Origin: Candidatus Woesearchaeota archaeon B3_Woes
GTDB lineage: Archaea > Nanobdellota > Nanobdellia > Woesearchaeales > B3-WOES
Reading direction: 5' to 3'
Assembly (NCBI GenBank): GCA_005222965.1
Contig: NJBG01000001.1
Location: forward strand, 146,323-210,322
Length of the DNA stretch: 64,000 nt
The notes under the pieces were generated by a model that was not told the origin of the DNA, did no database searches, and saw only the letters and a program-made list of their open reading frames with translations. A program made the translations under genes and the position numbers. Shown in pieces: positions 50,931 through 54,533 of this stretch (its first letter is position 1; the number at the start of each line of letters is the position of its first letter).

Positions 50931-51410
50931 ATGGTTAATCTGTTATTCATGGCAGTAATGTATTCGTCTGAAGATGTTTTTACTACAGCAAAAAAGGATT
51001 TAATTGCAAAATATAGTGATATAAAAGCAGAAAGTTCTGCTTATTCTTTTAATTTTACAAAATATTATGAAAAAGAGATGGGTTCAAACCTAAAAAAGAA
51101 ATTTTTAATATTTAACAAAGAGATTTCAAAAAAAGATTTAATTGAAATTAAACATTTTATAACAAAAATTGAAGAAAAATATTCTGATAACGGGAGAACA
51201 GTTAATATTGATCCTGGTTATTTATCTTCTAATGAATTTGTTCTAGCTACATTTAAAGGAAAAGACTTTAAAGAAAAAATAAGTGAAGATGTTTTTGTTC
51301 ATAAAATCTTAGAGTTTAAAGAAAAGAAAATAATTGAATTTTTTCACACATTTGCTGATTACAAAGTTAAAGAAAATCAGGAATTTTTATTAGCAAATAA
51401 GCCCCTGTAG
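50931..51410 (+). CDS. DUF4416 family protein
   Basis: FTKYYEKEMG, RTVNIDPGY, LAT.K, F.DY. Confidence 0.8.
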   Translation: MVNLLFMAVMYSSEDVFTTAKKDLIAKYSDIKAESSAYSFNFTKYYEKEMGSNLKKKFLIFNKEISKKDLIEIKHFITKIEEKYSDNGRTVNIDPGYLSSNEFVLATFKGKDFKEKISEDVFVHKILEFKEKKIIEFFHTFADYKVKENQEFLLANKPL

Positions 51411-51506
51411 TAGAATGGCAAATGGTTACGCCCATTTGATATGCAATAAGCGACATTCAAAGCTAAAGCTTTGAAATCCCTTCAACTTGCCCCTGTAGTA
51501 TAATGG
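51401..51506 (+). repeat. 18-bp direct repeat of the tRNA-Arg 5' end flanking a hairpin insert
   Basis: GCCCCTGTAGTA(G/T)AATGG at 51401-51418 and 51489-51506. Confidence 0.8.
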
Positions 51507-51582
51507 ATAATATACGACCTTGCGGAGTAATATCAATCTGCACAAAAAGGTTGAGATCGGAGTTCAATTCTCCGCTGGGGCA
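51489..51582 (+). tRNA. tRNA-Arg(GCG) with 22-nt 37/38 intron (51526-51547)
   Basis: GCCCCTG TA GTAT AATGGATA ATAT A CGACC TT GCG G[intron]A GGTTG AGAT CGGAG TTCAATT CTCCG CTGGGGC A; A20 Arg identity element; one U-U mismatch in the acceptor stem. Confidence 0.88.
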
Positions 51583-51706
51583 TAAATTTATAAGTAAAGT
51601 TAGGAACATAATGTAAGATCAAAAATAAGAATTCTCGAGATATACAAAACTATTGTTTTTATCTATTATTAGTAGATTATCAATAATAAACTATTGATAA
51701 TCTTAT

Positions 51707-52991
51707 GTTATACGCAATAAATCTGAAGTCCTTTTTTCTTTTAAGGGGCAAACTTATTATCATAATATTTTTGATTGCTAACCAACAATTCTCAGAATAA
51801 CTTTAATCAAACTTTTCTAAGCTACAAAGTTGCTGTGCGATTAGAGTAGCATTCAGTGCAGCACCTCTCAGGAGTTGGTCTCCACAGACAAACATTCTAA
51901 CACCATTATCAAAAACTTCTGGCTGTCTGATTCTTCCTACTTCAACTTGATAATTCCCTGAAGTGTTAATAGGCATTGGATAAATATTATTCAATGGATC
52001 ATCACAAACTTTGAGCATAGGCTCTTTATCTAAAGCAAATCTATATTCATCCAAATTTATAGGTGTATGTGTTTCAACCATAATATCTTCAGCATGAGAT
52101 CTTTCAACAGGTACTCTCACACAACCACTAGAAATTCTCACAGAATCTTCTAACCCAAGAATTTTTCGAGATTCCCAATCAGTTTTCATCTCTTCTTTTG
52201 TATATCCATTCTCTTGAAATCTATCAATATGAGGGATCACATTAAAAGGCAGAGGATATTGAAATTTACTATGTTCAACAGATTCGCCATCAAGATAATT
52301 CCTAGATTGTTCTAGCAGTTCATTTCTACCCCCATTTCCTGCGCCACTTGCAGATTGGTAAGTAGAAAAAATTATTCTTTCGATTCCAGCCATCTGATTT
52401 AATATGTGTAAAGGTATTGCTGCAATTGCAGTAGTACAATTTGGATTTGCAATTAATCTTGATGGATGCTCTCTTAACAACTCTCCATTGATTTCTGGGA
52501 TTATTAAAGGAACATTATCATCATATCTAAAAGCTGACGAATTGTCTACAACATAACAACCAGAACCCCTTGCTTTTTCCCAATTCGTTTTTGACCAATC
52601 TCCACTAATCGCCCAAAGCGCTAAATCTAAGCTAGAATAATCTGCAGTATCTGCTTTTTGAACAACAATTTTACCAAAGGGAGTTTTTAGACTTTTTCCA
52701 GCAGATTTGCCTGCATAAAGATACAGTTCATCTACTGGAAATTCCAATTTGTCAAGAACATTAATAATTTCTTGACCTACTTCTCCTGTTGCACCAAAGA
52801 TGCCAACCTTTACTTTTCCCATATAATATTGAAATGGAGGTTAGTATTTAAATATTATTATTCTTTAAAGAATAAGTTTGCCCCGGATTTTCTGTCTTAA
52901 TATATCACTTAGTTCTTTTGAAGGACGGACTTCAGATTTACTGTCGCTCCGTTTCACTCCGCGATTTTTTCTTGCAGAAAAAACGTATAAC
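51707..52991. mobile_element. Cassette-like unit 1 carrying asd
   Basis: GTTATAC...GTATAAC ends; inverted repeats 51718-51731/52927-52940 and 51745-51758/52871-52884. Confidence 0.6.
51803..52822 (-). CDS. asd: Aspartate-semialdehyde dehydrogenase (bacterial type)
   Basis: GATGEVG, DNSSAFR, NPNCTT, TYQSASGAG, RVPV..SH, GAALN. Confidence 0.95.
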   Translation of the reverse strand: MGKVKVGIFGATGEVGQEIINVLDKLEFPVDELYLYAGKSAGKSLKTPFGKIVVQKADTADYSSLDLALWAISGDWSKTNWEKARGSGCYVVDNSSAFRYDDNVPLIIPEINGELLREHPSRLIANPNCTTAIAAIPLHILNQMAGIERIIFSTYQSASGAGNGGRNELLEQSRNYLDGESVEHSKFQYPLPFNVIPHIDRFQENGYTKEEMKTDWESRKILGLEDSVRISSGCVRVPVERSHAEDIMVETHTPINLDEYRFALDKEPMLKVCDDPLNNIYPMPINTSGNYQVEVGRIRQPEVFDNGVRMFVCGDQLLRGAALNATLIAQQLCSLEKFD

Positions 52992-53003
52992 AGCAATCTC
53001 GAT

Positions 53004-54114
53004 GTTATGCGAAATCGAAAGAAAGACCTAAATTAGTTAAATAGAGATGGGGCTTCAGCAATATTTATATACAATCCTTAGATATTTAATTATAGTATGG
53101 AAACTTGGATAATTTTTGCATTAATCGCACCTGCACTTTGGGCTATCACAAATTTATTTGATAGTAGGCTAAGAAACTTTCATATTAAAGATGAATTTGT
53201 GCTAACTACTTTTGCTGGTTTTGTTGGACTACTAGCATTTCTTTTTATTCCAATATATGGATTTTCATTCCCAGGAATTTGGATTTTCATTGTTTCAATG
53301 ATTGCAGGAGTTCTATATATTTACACAATGATTCCATACTTCAAAGCATTGTCTTTAGAAGACACCTCTACCGTAATAATGCTTTGGTATATAACTCCAG
53401 TTCTTATTCCTTTCTTCGCAAGATTTTTTCTCAATGAAAATCTTTTACTTATTCAATATTTAGGATTCATCCTTATTTTATTAGGAGGTTTACTTATTTC
53501 AATAAAAAGAAATGCTCTTAAGAAGATTCATATTAGCAAGGCATTATTTATGATGTTAGCTTCAGGAATAATGCTTGATATTTATTACCTTCTTGAAAAA
53601 TATATTTATCAAAACCAATCATTTTGGAATGGATTTTTGTGGATTAGATTTGGAAGTTTTGTTGGGGCATTAACTATTTTAGCAATTCCAAAATACAGAA
53701 ATTCATTCATTCAAATGAAAAACACTTTGAATTTTAAATCTTTTAAATTGATTTTTGGAGGAGAATTGCTAAATCTAATAGCCCTTGTTTCCATTGGATT
53801 TGCATTGAGTTTAGGTTCAGTTAGCTTAGTAATATCATTAACAAACTTCCAACCATTATTCTTAATTGTATTTATCATCCTATTGTCAAAATTCTTTCCA
53901 AAATTATATAAAGAAAAATTATCCAAGAAAATTATATTTGTTAAAGTAATAGCTGTTGCATTATTGATATTAGGATTGTATCTTATTGTTATGTAAGCCC
54001 CAACTCCTTGATTCTTTGTTTTGATGTATCGCATTCGCTCTTTAGATGAACGGTCTTTCTTTCGACTCAAGGGGACGCTGCGCTTTCAGGCTAAAGCCCT
54101 TACCCCCATATAAC
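53004..54114. mobile_element. Cassette-like unit 2 carrying an EamA transporter
   Basis: GTTATGC...ATATAAC ends; inverted repeats 53015-53028/54052-54065 and 53048-53055/53995-54002. Confidence 0.55.
53097..53996 (+). CDS. EamA/DMT family transporter
   Basis: About 10 TM segments in two repeats; own TATA (TTTATATA near 53064). Confidence 0.88.
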   Translation: METWIIFALIAPALWAITNLFDSRLRNFHIKDEFVLTTFAGFVGLLAFLFIPIYGFSFPGIWIFIVSMIAGVLYIYTMIPYFKALSLEDTSTVIMLWYITPVLIPFFARFFLNENLLLIQYLGFILILLGGLLISIKRNALKKIHISKALFMMLASGIMLDIYYLLEKYIYQNQSFWNGFLWIRFGSFVGALTILAIPKYRNSFIQMKNTLNFKSFKLIFGGELLNLIALVSIGFALSLGSVSLVISLTNFQPLFLIVFIILLSKFFPKLYKEKLSKKIIFVKVIAVALLILGLYLIVM

Positions 54115-54179
54115 ACAAGCTAACGCAACAATGCATCATTTAACATAGCTTTATAAACCAACCAATATTTTAAGTTACT

Positions 54180-54533
54180 ATGAGAGACTTCAAAAAAGGT
54201 AGATCTGATAGAAAACCTAGAAGATCTAGTAGAAGGGACGATTCTGACGAAGGAGGAGACTTTAAGAGCTTTAGAGCAAGAAAATCATCCGGAAGATCAG
54301 GTAGAAGGGATTCTTCTAGAAGAAGTTCAAGAATAGAAATGCATGAAGTCGTTTGTGACAAATGCGGCGAAAAATGCGAAGTTCCTTTCAAACCAACTTC
54401 AAGTAAACCTGTTTATTGTAGTGATTGTTTTACAAAAGAAGATGGAAGATCATCGAGAGGTAAATCTTCAAACGGACTTGATGAAGTAAACAAAAAGCTT
54501 GATAAAATTATGAAAGCATTGAAAATCGAATAA
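54180..54533 (+). CDS. CxxC-x17-CxxC domain protein with Arg/Ser-rich N-terminus
   Basis: MHEVVCDKCGEKCEVPFKP...KPVYCSDCF. Confidence 0.9.
   Translation: MRDFKKGRSDRKPRRSSRRDDSDEGGDFKSFRARKSSGRSGRRDSSRRSSRIEMHEVVCDKCGEKCEVPFKPTSSKPVYCSDCFTKEDGRSSRGKSSNGLDEVNKKLDKIMKALKIE

Follow-up and report, generated by a model that had tools for sequence, protein, structure and literature searches.

Candidate Xer-type gene cassettes with split palindromic attachment sites in a woesearchaeal genome

Introduction

What kind of genetic element encloses each of two neighboring genes in its own set of nested inverted repeats? The question is raised by a locus of Candidatus Woesearchaeota archaeon B3_Woes (GenBank assembly GCA_005222965.1), where asd, encoding aspartate-semialdehyde dehydrogenase, and a gene for an EamA-family transporter lie in such units downstream of a tRNA gene. 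The window that we analyzed is a stretch of 64,000 nucleotides (nt) from contig NJBG01000001.1, hereafter C1 (C1:146323-210322), and the locus was analyzed between window positions 51600 and 54200; coordinates without the prefix C1 refer to the window. C1 comprises ~1.0 Mb of a 1.02-Mb genome that is 96% complete and has a GC content of 30%. An earlier interpretation of this DNA, here called the sequence-only reading, described the locus as an integron-like array of two self-complementary cassettes.

DPANN archaea have tiny, patchy genomes, and the ways in which they gain or swap metabolic genes are poorly understood. From sequence comparisons we conclude that the two units are probably cassettes moved by an Xer-type recombinase in a small-genome (DPANN-type) archaeal order, with the flanking repeats best read as the two halves of a palindromic attachment site. 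An Xer-type cassette system with split palindromic attachment sites has apparently not been described so far. The literature within our scope, which excluded the supplements of PMC9668308 and PMC2958812 (these could hold site sequences), contains no earlier description in these archaea beyond canonical archaeal integrons.

Results

Two units of nested inverted repeats

Each unit is built from three nested, collinear inverted repeats around a gene and ends in TGTTA...TAACA cores, with an extra 40-45 nt that contain small hairpins on the TAACA side. TATA-like elements, which serve as predicted promoters, lie within the units 20-30 nt upstream of the asd and EamA starts. The features of the locus are as follows.

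51489-51582, plus strand: tRNA gene with a 25-nt intron, the left neighbor of the array (ARAGORN; Rfam tRNA, 48 bits)
51674-51703, no strand: hairpin X, a perfect 12-6-12 palindrome in the sequence, AGATTATCAATA-ATAAAC-TATTGATAATCT
51706-51714, plus strand: left core of unit 1, TGTTATACG, in which TGTTA is the proposed crossover region
51718-51731, plus strand: left arm of unit 1, TAAATCTGAAGTCC, preceded by CAA and lying at offset 12 counted from the first letter of TGTTA
51745-51758, plus strand: inner left arm of unit 1, GGGGCAAACTTATT, from the inverted-repeat search
51803-52822, minus strand: asd, aspartate-semialdehyde dehydrogenase, 339 amino acids (aa), the cargo of unit 1 (Pfam PF01118 and PF02774)
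52871-52884, plus strand: inner right arm of unit 1, AATAAGTTTGCCCC, upstream of the asd TATA-like element, pairing 14/14 with GGGGCAAACTTATT
52927-52940, plus strand: right arm of unit 1, GGACTTCAGATTTA, pairing 14/14 with TAAATCTGAAGTCC
52941-52983, plus strand: right-side insert of unit 1 with small local hairpins, on the TAACA side only
52984-52992, plus strand: right core of unit 1, CGTATAACA
52993-53002, no strand: junction spacer between units 1 and 2, gcaatctcga in the sequence
53003-53011, plus strand: left core of unit 2, TGTTATGCG
53015-53028, plus strand: left arm of unit 2, TCGAAAGAAAGACC, of an arm family found also in G266, G279, G347 and other genomes
53048-53055, plus strand: inner left arm of unit 2, TGGGGCTT, upstream of a TATA-like element at ~53062-53073
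53097-53996, plus strand: EamA-family transporter, 299 aa, the cargo of unit 2 (Pfam PF00892)
53995-54002, plus strand: inner right arm of unit 2, AAGCCCCA, overlapping the EamA stop codon and pairing with TGGGGCTT
54052-54065, plus strand: right arm of unit 2, GGTCTTTCTTTCGA, pairing 14/14 with TCGAAAGAAAGACC
54066-54107, plus strand: right-side GC-rich insert of unit 2 (>50% GC), homologous to the right end in G279
54108-54115, plus strand: right core of unit 2, ATATAACA, with TAACA at 54111-54115, an imperfect partner of TGTTATGCG

All repeat and core elements listed in the sequence-only reading were recovered at their positions, and the opposite directions that it gave for asd and the EamA gene agree with the gene calls. 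It also placed the array downstream of tRNA-Arg; the tRNA gene is called by both ARAGORN and Rfam, and we take its anticodon as GCG (Arg) from our own reading of the alignment. Hairpin X occupies the 30 nt directly left of unit 1, ending 2 nt (TA) ahead of the first TGTTA.

The nesting of these repeats is real and far beyond chance. Five perfect inverted pairs of at least 14 nt, spaced 150-3000 nt apart, fall within 51600-54200. Mononucleotide shuffling gave a mean of 0.037 such pairs and a maximum of 2, such that 0 of 300 shuffles reached 5, and among 768 windows of the same size across C1 the maximum was 3, attained by three windows of which two overlap this locus. Both arms are intergenic in 18 of the 371 inverted pairs of at least 13 nt on C1, and 3 of these 18 lie here.

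Some further repeats were observed at the locus. The EamA coding sequence itself holds a perfect 14-nt inverted pair (53104-53117/53914-53927), collinear with the nested flanking repeats and placed 7 nt past the start codon and 69 nt ahead of the stop, as well as a 22-nt inverted pair of 91% identity (53234-53255/53495-53516). A 19-nt, 79% inverted match between the 3′ end of asd and the 5′ part of the EamA gene (51825-51843/53122-53140) crosses the two units and is probably due to chance. Just upstream of the tRNA gene, a 23-nt near copy (87%) of its 5′ part 51489-51511 is present at 51401-51423 and overlaps the end of a DUF4416 open reading frame (ORF); neither ARAGORN nor Rfam calls a tRNA there (region 51401-51487). 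This copy could be what an integration left of a tRNA gene, or it could belong to a tRNA of unusual type, split or intron-bearing.

A family of units with a common layout

The same layout is found in at least five further places in this genome, and both metagenome contigs and further genomes of the order contain it as well. In an all-versus-all comparison of intergenic regions, the 45 nt ending in TGTTA on the left of unit 1 recur at C1:687547-687591 with 97.8% identity, and a 31-nt stretch of the unit 2 left end is found again at C1:906109-906139. We also scanned the genome for units defined as TGTTA, a short gap, an arm, the reverse complement of that arm downstream, and TAACA within 90 nt. 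With exact seeds and arms of at least 12 nt, the scan yields 7 pairs on the plus strand, compared with none on either strand when two control core motifs are used. When two mismatches are allowed, the plus-strand count is 8 and the controls give 1, 0 and 1. The additional units, whose cargo is miscellaneous or of no assigned function, are listed here.

C1:104141-106281, plus strand: U104, two genes
C1:687587-691212, plus strand: U687, a gene of 1083 aa
C1:905414-906103, plus strand: U905, 168 aa
C1:127942-127144, minus strand: U127, 215 aa
C1:901978-900652, minus strand: U901, an ATP-grasp protein; the arm pairs at 11/14 positions

These units follow one grammar. On the left stand TGTTA, four variable nt, (C/A)AA and, at offset 12, a 14-nt cassette-specific arm, often joined by an inner GGGGC-type arm. 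The middle carries one or more genes with a predicted promoter of their own, in either orientation. On the right, the complements follow in reverse order, then a GC-rich insert of 35-70 nt in which small hairpins with CTTCG-type loops are frequent, then 4 nt complementary to the first four, and finally TAACA; in most units the 4-5 nt past TGTTA match those ahead of TAACA. The orientation of the gene is unrelated to that of the unit, with four sense and three antisense cases among the seven units of the genome. Between cassettes, a palindromic hairpin of variable length separates TAACA from the next TGTTA, and the gap measures 8-12 nt in this genome and ~70 nt in metagenome contig L170. Junctions between cores thus span 8-70 nt and, judged by geometry only, contain no compact attC.

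One result goes against the emphasis that the sequence-only reading placed on the core motif: over the whole genome, the 9-mer TGTTATRCG shows no enrichment (10 matches versus 11 for a backwards control). The individual cores GTTAAGT and GTTAAAT fit GTTRRRY, and GTTATAC and GTTATGC each show one mismatch.

Arms covary and mosaics break at TGTTA

Covariation was measured over 13 cassettes with nine different arm sequences: seven cassettes of this genome, four of metagenome contigs, and one apiece in G347 and G279. Between the left arm of a cassette and the right flank of the same cassette, 11-14 of the 14 positions are complementary (mean 13.5), compared with an average of 9.05 for cross-pairs, scored at the best of all registers. 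Among cross-pairs, values of 13-14 are confined to cassettes of one arm family (U104/U687; unit 2/G347/G279). Complementarity has therefore been kept while the sequence of the arms has changed.

When the right and left ends of a unit are joined, they fold under DNA parameters as long imperfect hairpins, with z-scores of −8.8 for unit 1, −10.4 for U687, −5.8 for U905 and −3.5 for U127 (100 mononucleotide shuffles per unit; the core was clipped in the slices used for three units). Each unit may fold as single-stranded DNA with the gene in its loop, as the sequence-only reading proposed, and this would fit the covariation; an equally good alternative is that the arms are the halves of a local palindrome in a free circular cassette.

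An alignment of four left ends reveals mosaic structure. As far as the end of TGTTA, U687 has the sequence of unit 1 without a difference, and from TGTTA rightwards it is identical to U104. Left of TGTTA, U104 and U905 have a common sequence that differs from that of unit 1 and U687. A swap of flanks at one 5-nt point is the trace expected of site-specific recombination. The mosaic boundaries fall within TGTTA; in integrons, the crossover is at G/TT of GTTRRRY.

Related ends are also found on different cargo. The end family of TCGAAAGAAAGACC and GGGGC encloses the EamA gene here, a gene for a HAD hydrolase in G347, where the arms form an inverted pair 988 nt apart, and a gene for a 2-hydroxyacid dehydrogenase in G279, whose right end aligns with that of unit 2 over most of its length. 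The unit 2 arm and inner GGGGC arm also lie beside the recombinase-proximal site of G266, and a near copy of the unit 1 arm lies beside a recombinase gene of G189, a genome in which a homolog of the U905 right end is present too. Another inverted pair is present in G207, a genome flagged as unpublished, on which no conclusion rests. An exact-arm unit finder applied to eight regions of relatives gave only two weak, probably chance, matches.

To judge from such comparisons, the cargo looks accessory. Matches to asd were found in 8 of 41 relatives, only two of which exceed 50% identity; its neighbors are ZIP transporter and RuBisCO genes in one of these two and a homoserine dehydrogenase gene in the other, none of them EamA. 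A shared asd-EamA gene order without these flanks, which the sequence-only reading had named as evidence against itself, is not the case, since the two genes are never neighbors in the relatives searched. Similar units and recombinases, which it suggested looking for in the lineage, are both present.

Recombinase genes adjoin the conserved sites

In agreement with the sequence-only reading, the window contains no integrase, and both Phage_integrase matches of the genome lie outside it, at C1:103199-103684 and C1:856306-856800. Only one of these represents a full-length protein (276 aa; C1:103163-103993, minus strand), which scores 221.8 bits with NCBIfam XerA_Arch (NF040815; cut-off 220), 165.3 bits with the integron-integrase model TIGR02249 (cut-off 265) and 156-158 bits with the XerC and XerD models (cut-offs ~330-335). 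Its start is ~130 nt from the hairpin A+TGTTA of U104. Hairpin A, AACACCTATTAA-tacttcgt-TTAATAGGTGTT, ends in the TGTTA that opens U104, has six copies in this genome and appears to belong to the class of junction hairpins.

With up to two mismatches, 28 genomes out of 301 in the order have a match to the hairpin A motif. Its backwards control is matched in ~20 genomes, and therefore not all 28 matches are real. Matches with at most one mismatch, plus a recurring variant, retain the continuation TGTTA-N4-CAAT (N4, four variable nt), and the separation of the hairpin A arms varies between genomes from 8 to 15 nt. Of the 19 loci from other genomes, 8 have a Phage_integrase ORF that directly adjoins the motif in divergent orientation. 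The ORF scan behind this count took in 27 of 33 ORFs of at least 150 aa; the six left out comprise one in the own-genome locus L020, two that overlap larger ORFs and three elsewhere in the loci.

All eight site-adjacent recombinases of relatives have XerA_Arch as their best match (198-225 bits), one of them above the cut-off of 220 (225.5 bits) and seven scoring 198-215. Together with the protein from this genome, the nine site-adjacent recombinases score 159-209 bits with TIGR02249, well short of 265, and match it in two pieces that skip approximately model positions 182-238; they lack the IntI-specific segment and are 263-291 aa long compared with the 315 positions of the model. Two of seven further recombinase paralogs have TGTTA-tatt-CAAT within ~160 nt of their start. 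In G173, G189 and G266, where each genome has 3-5 recombinase matches, a protein other than the site-adjacent one is the best match to the XerA-like protein of our genome.

Searches for other mobility functions in the 96%-complete genome gave no match to Y1 transposase, TnpB, serine recombinase or reverse transcriptase. A recombinase-alignment scan of the whole collection, which served as a negative control only, returned mostly bacterial Xer/integrase loci, with a divergent upstream TGTTA-N4-[AC]AAT in 0 of 79.

Two loci on C1 deserve separate mention. At locus L047, the ~115-130 nt upstream of hairpin A are repeated (C1:98170-98299 and C1:104030-104145), with a partial third copy at ~107690. 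The repeat contains a TGGCAAAT...ATTTGCCA pairing and has no Rfam match; it may represent a small RNA gene or an extension of the recombinase site. Locus L018 (C1:856270-858330) holds the second, shorter tyrosine recombinase of the genome (217 aa), which lacks the N-terminal SAM-like domain. A Fic-domain gene ~440 nt from it lies inside a perfect 14-nt inverted repeat, AAATGTAGACACCT, a third, partial copy of which is found just beyond, and the locus has the look of a small element in its own right, either integrated or invertible.

Hairpin X, of which this genome has two copies, is linked to recombinase genes in metagenomes. The 33-mer at 51678-51710 occurs exactly in 13 metagenome contigs, 12 of them distinct. 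In all six contigs tested, the upstream divergent ORF encodes a tyrosine recombinase of 267-273 aa with a SAM-like N-terminal domain and begins ~55-60 nt from the palindrome. Four of the other seven contigs have at most 310 nt upstream, and three have at least 500 nt but no such ORF. The six recombinases share 75-81% protein identity, and at the DNA level they align over 470-585 nt with 71-79% identity. Because the 33-mer is exact while the adjoining recombinase DNA is only 71-79% identical, the site has been kept more strictly than the gene.

On the site's opposite side, the contigs each continue with TGTTA-N4-(C/A)AAT and an arm, and over 600 nt past TGTTA they show no similarity to each other, save for one duplicate pair and one 31-nt match. 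A partner for the offset-12 arm, perfect or with one mismatch, lies 384-1585 nt downstream in L163/L174, L166, L167 and L170, and behind it come a GC-rich insert of 55-70 nt and then TAACA. A second cassette stands behind the first in L170, and one cassette is located further downstream in L172. In L168, the 12-nt arm behind hairpin X+TGTTA has its perfect complement ~190 nt upstream of hairpin X, within the adjacent recombinase gene near its 5′ end; this is one case and may be chance.

Thus, a hairpin followed by TGTTA is found in many genomes 55-180 nt upstream of, and divergent from, a gene for an XerA-family tyrosine recombinase, with cassettes behind it singly or in arrays. Hairpin X in the window is, by its sequence, a copy of this recombinase-proximal site. 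In our interpretation the window presents two cassettes, one with asd and one with the EamA gene, and the copy of the site in front of them, beside tRNA-Arg, has no recombinase gene.

Discussion

A split-palindrome model

We infer a mechanism in which a free circular form of the cassette is the intermediate. With the ends joined, the nested arms, the GC-rich insert and the TAACA...TGTTA cores would make up one long imperfect palindrome, an analog of attC. The XerA-family recombinase would exchange strands in or beside TGTTA, between the site of the cassette and a chromosomal hairpin+TGTTA site. With strand exchange taking place close to the palindrome's apex, integration would part its halves, which would then bracket the cargo as inverted repeats, and repeated insertions would yield arrays with hybrid junctions such as that between unit 1 and unit 2. 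Splitting of this kind would account for cassette-specific arms, conserved cores, breakpoints at TGTTA and independence of gene orientation, all of which are observed.

Several results weigh against this interpretation. No partner arm was found in four of the eight distinct metagenome contigs with at least 380 nt downstream (L164, L165, L169 and the first cassette of L172), nor was a right arm found for the first left end by the G189 recombinase within the 18 kb searched (at most three mismatches). The genome under study has no close homolog of the hairpin X recombinase clade; its XerA-like protein is 37-41% identical to that clade and is encoded ~94 kb from the locus. The two-mismatch unit scan is not above its controls on the minus strand (3 versus 2, 0 and 3), and stand-alone closed palindromic sites, with an arm and its partner within 200 nt, were not found above a control motif. 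The gap between cores varies from 8 to ~70 nt, which would not normally be expected of a double-stranded core site whose spacer is fixed. Three units have weak fold z-scores, namely unit 2 (−2.5), U104 (−2.3) and U901 (−1.0). Among 400 genomes, the unit 2 arm 14-mer has 13 matches outside G000 versus ~25 for its backwards control, and only paired, in-context occurrences were taken as informative from these counts. Finally, the relatives are too distant for an empty-site comparison, as the flanking DUF4416 protein has a best identity of 52% among 41 genomes and its match in the genome of the same family is a fragment only.

Alternative explanations

One alternative shares the recombinase chemistry of our interpretation and differs on the purpose of the site. 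The palindrome and TGTTA would be the chromosomal dif site of the lineage, kept beside its single Xer gene, and the units would be modules that exploit Xer in the manner of dif modules or integrative mobile elements exploiting Xer (IMEX). The recombinases do match XerA_Arch best, the genome has a single full-length tyrosine recombinase, and the 12-6-12 geometry of hairpin X is dif-like. The unit 1/unit 2 junction, including both cores, can likewise be read as a 28-bp 11-6-11 site, CGTATAACAGC-AATCTC-GATGTTATGCG, whose arms are symmetric at 9 of 11 positions. Location of the site next to the xer gene is known from the XerS and XerH systems. On the other hand, there are six copies of hairpin A and two of hairpin X rather than one site, and hairpin A arms are separated by anything from 8 to 15 nt in different genomes. 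The multiple recombinases of G173, G189 and G266, with the site-adjacent one not being the closest to our XerA-like protein, also speak against this alternative. The cumulative GC skew of the genome has no turning point, so that it offers no terminus or dif location for comparison. We know of no report of dif modules with cassette-specific long arms, with no search directed at this point. We consider this explanation unlikely.

The dif modules of Acinetobacter, as presented in the portion of PMC13141974 at hand, consist of genes flanked by 28-bp pdif XerC/XerD sites in inverse orientation, with neighboring modules sharing a site. Our units resemble them in being discrete modules bounded by inverted Xer-type half-sites (here TGTTAnnnn...nnnnTAACA), in sharing junction sites between neighbors, in the recurrence of modules or ends in different contexts, and in a mechanism deduced mostly from comparative data. 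Judged by the same portion, they differ in being archaeal and chromosomal (on a 1.0-Mb contig) instead of bacterial and plasmid-borne, in relying on one XerA-like recombinase without alternation of C and D modules instead of XerC and XerD, in their long module-specific nested arms beyond the half-sites, in inter-core distances that vary (8, 12 and ~70 nt) where the pdif site has 28 bp with a 6-bp spacer, and in a site that adjoins the recombinase gene. With archaeal XerA/dif and IMEX single-recombinase systems, according to the available sections of PMC2958812 and PMC8371274, they share the recombinase family and, in the case of XerA/dif and hairpin X, a palindromic site with a 6-nt center. 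The dif site of Thermococcales is described in those sections of PMC2958812 as single and not beside xerA, whereas here the sites are multiple (six of hairpin A, two of hairpin X), with variable cassettes behind them.

A second alternative involves no mobility. The unit ends would pair in place, as RNA or DNA, to insulate, process or regulate the gene. The covariation of the arms does indicate constraint on complementarity, CTTCG-type loops are frequent in the inserts, and the processing stems of archaeal rRNA provide a precedent for pairing over 1-3.5 kb. Unit orientation, however, is independent of gene orientation (four sense, three antisense), and the arms lie outside the TATA-like elements and therefore outside the likely mRNAs. 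In-place pairing would also leave the adjacency to recombinases, the TGTTA breakpoints and the presence of the same ends on unrelated cargo unexplained, and no Rfam family matched the flanks. This alternative is improbable. An origin of the arms in split tRNA genes or bulge-helix-bulge introns was rejected on the same two grounds, position outside likely transcripts and indifference to gene orientation, and an explanation by a known RNA family was rejected because neither the flanks nor the hairpin A loci have an Rfam match, barring tRNAs and sub-threshold noise.

Terminal inverted repeats around cargo, and ends that recur with different cargo, could equally suggest cargo transposons, or repeats derived from miniature inverted-repeat transposable elements, moved by some transposase other than a tyrosine recombinase. 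Only ~5 terminal nt are conserved and the remainder is cassette-specific, which makes a sequence-specific transposase unlikely. No target-site duplication is evident, the genome lacks Y1 transposase, TnpB and serine recombinase matches (DDE families were not searched), and the adjacency that is conserved is to tyrosine recombinases. Such transposons are very improbable here. A canonical integron, or a cluster of attC sites lacking an integrase, with an IntI-type enzyme and attC as in archaeal metagenome-assembled genomes, would find support in the GTT/AAC-type cores and in the archaeal integrons, including some of Nanoarchaeota, reported in the part of PMC9668308 available, but it is the least credible of all, given TIGR02249 scores of 159-209 bits against 265 for all nine site-adjacent recombinases with the middle of the model skipped, pairing partners parted by a gene with no compact attC (on geometry alone), predicted own promoters and mixed gene orientation.

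A possible counterpart of integrons in DPANN archaea

The description of the locus as integron-like therefore stands in part. What holds is the presence of cassette-like units, GTT/AAC-type cores, a family linked to tyrosine recombinases and breaks at TGTTA; what does not is membership of integrons proper, given the XerA-family enzyme, the lack of a compact attC, the TATA-like elements of the units and the free gene orientation. As in integrons, a tyrosine recombinase gene is divergent from a conserved site with unrelated cassettes behind it (8 of 19 hairpin A loci and 6 of 6 hairpin X contigs), and the window, which has the site but no recombinase, resembles integrase-less integron arrays. 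Recombination sites are in both cases set by palindromic structure more than by sequence, cores of GTT/AAC type mark the cassette boundaries, and related families of sites occur on unrelated cargo. In contrast to integrons, the enzyme belongs to the XerA family and is without the IntI-specific segment, and the partner arms lie 1.0-3.5 kb apart around the cargo, whereas an integron attC is compact (57-141 nt) and located at one end. The split palindrome implies a crossover near the apex and not at the base, and the GC-rich insert is found on the TAACA side only. Cassettes here carry TATA-like elements of their own and genes in either orientation; integron cassettes are mostly promoterless, of one orientation and driven from the promoter Pc. 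The archaeal integrons of Ghaly et al. 2022 are canonical in integrase, attC, and cassette promoter and orientation, to the extent covered by the available part of PMC9668308.

Beyond the cassette interpretation itself, we tentatively suggest that DPANN-type archaea may possess a gene-capture system of their own that is parallel to integrons, composed of an XerA-family enzyme, an ultra-conserved hairpin+TGTTA site, promoter-bearing cassettes and cassette-specific palindromes that are cut near the apex, with the halves left on either side of each integrated gene. If this is true, it would constitute a second, independently organized solution to structure-guided cassette recombination, and a route by which metabolic genes such as asd pass between minimal genomes. 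It would also broaden what is understood as gene capture by tyrosine recombinases, to include a site split around its cargo, cassettes with their own promoters and an enzyme that is Xer-like instead of IntI. The grammar of the units (hairpin, TGTTA, N4, CAAT, arm...arm′, GC-rich insert, TAACA) can be used as a cassette detector for metagenomes. For DPANN archaea, a recombinase-linked cassette system would offer a concrete mechanism of gene gain that can be tested at the bench.

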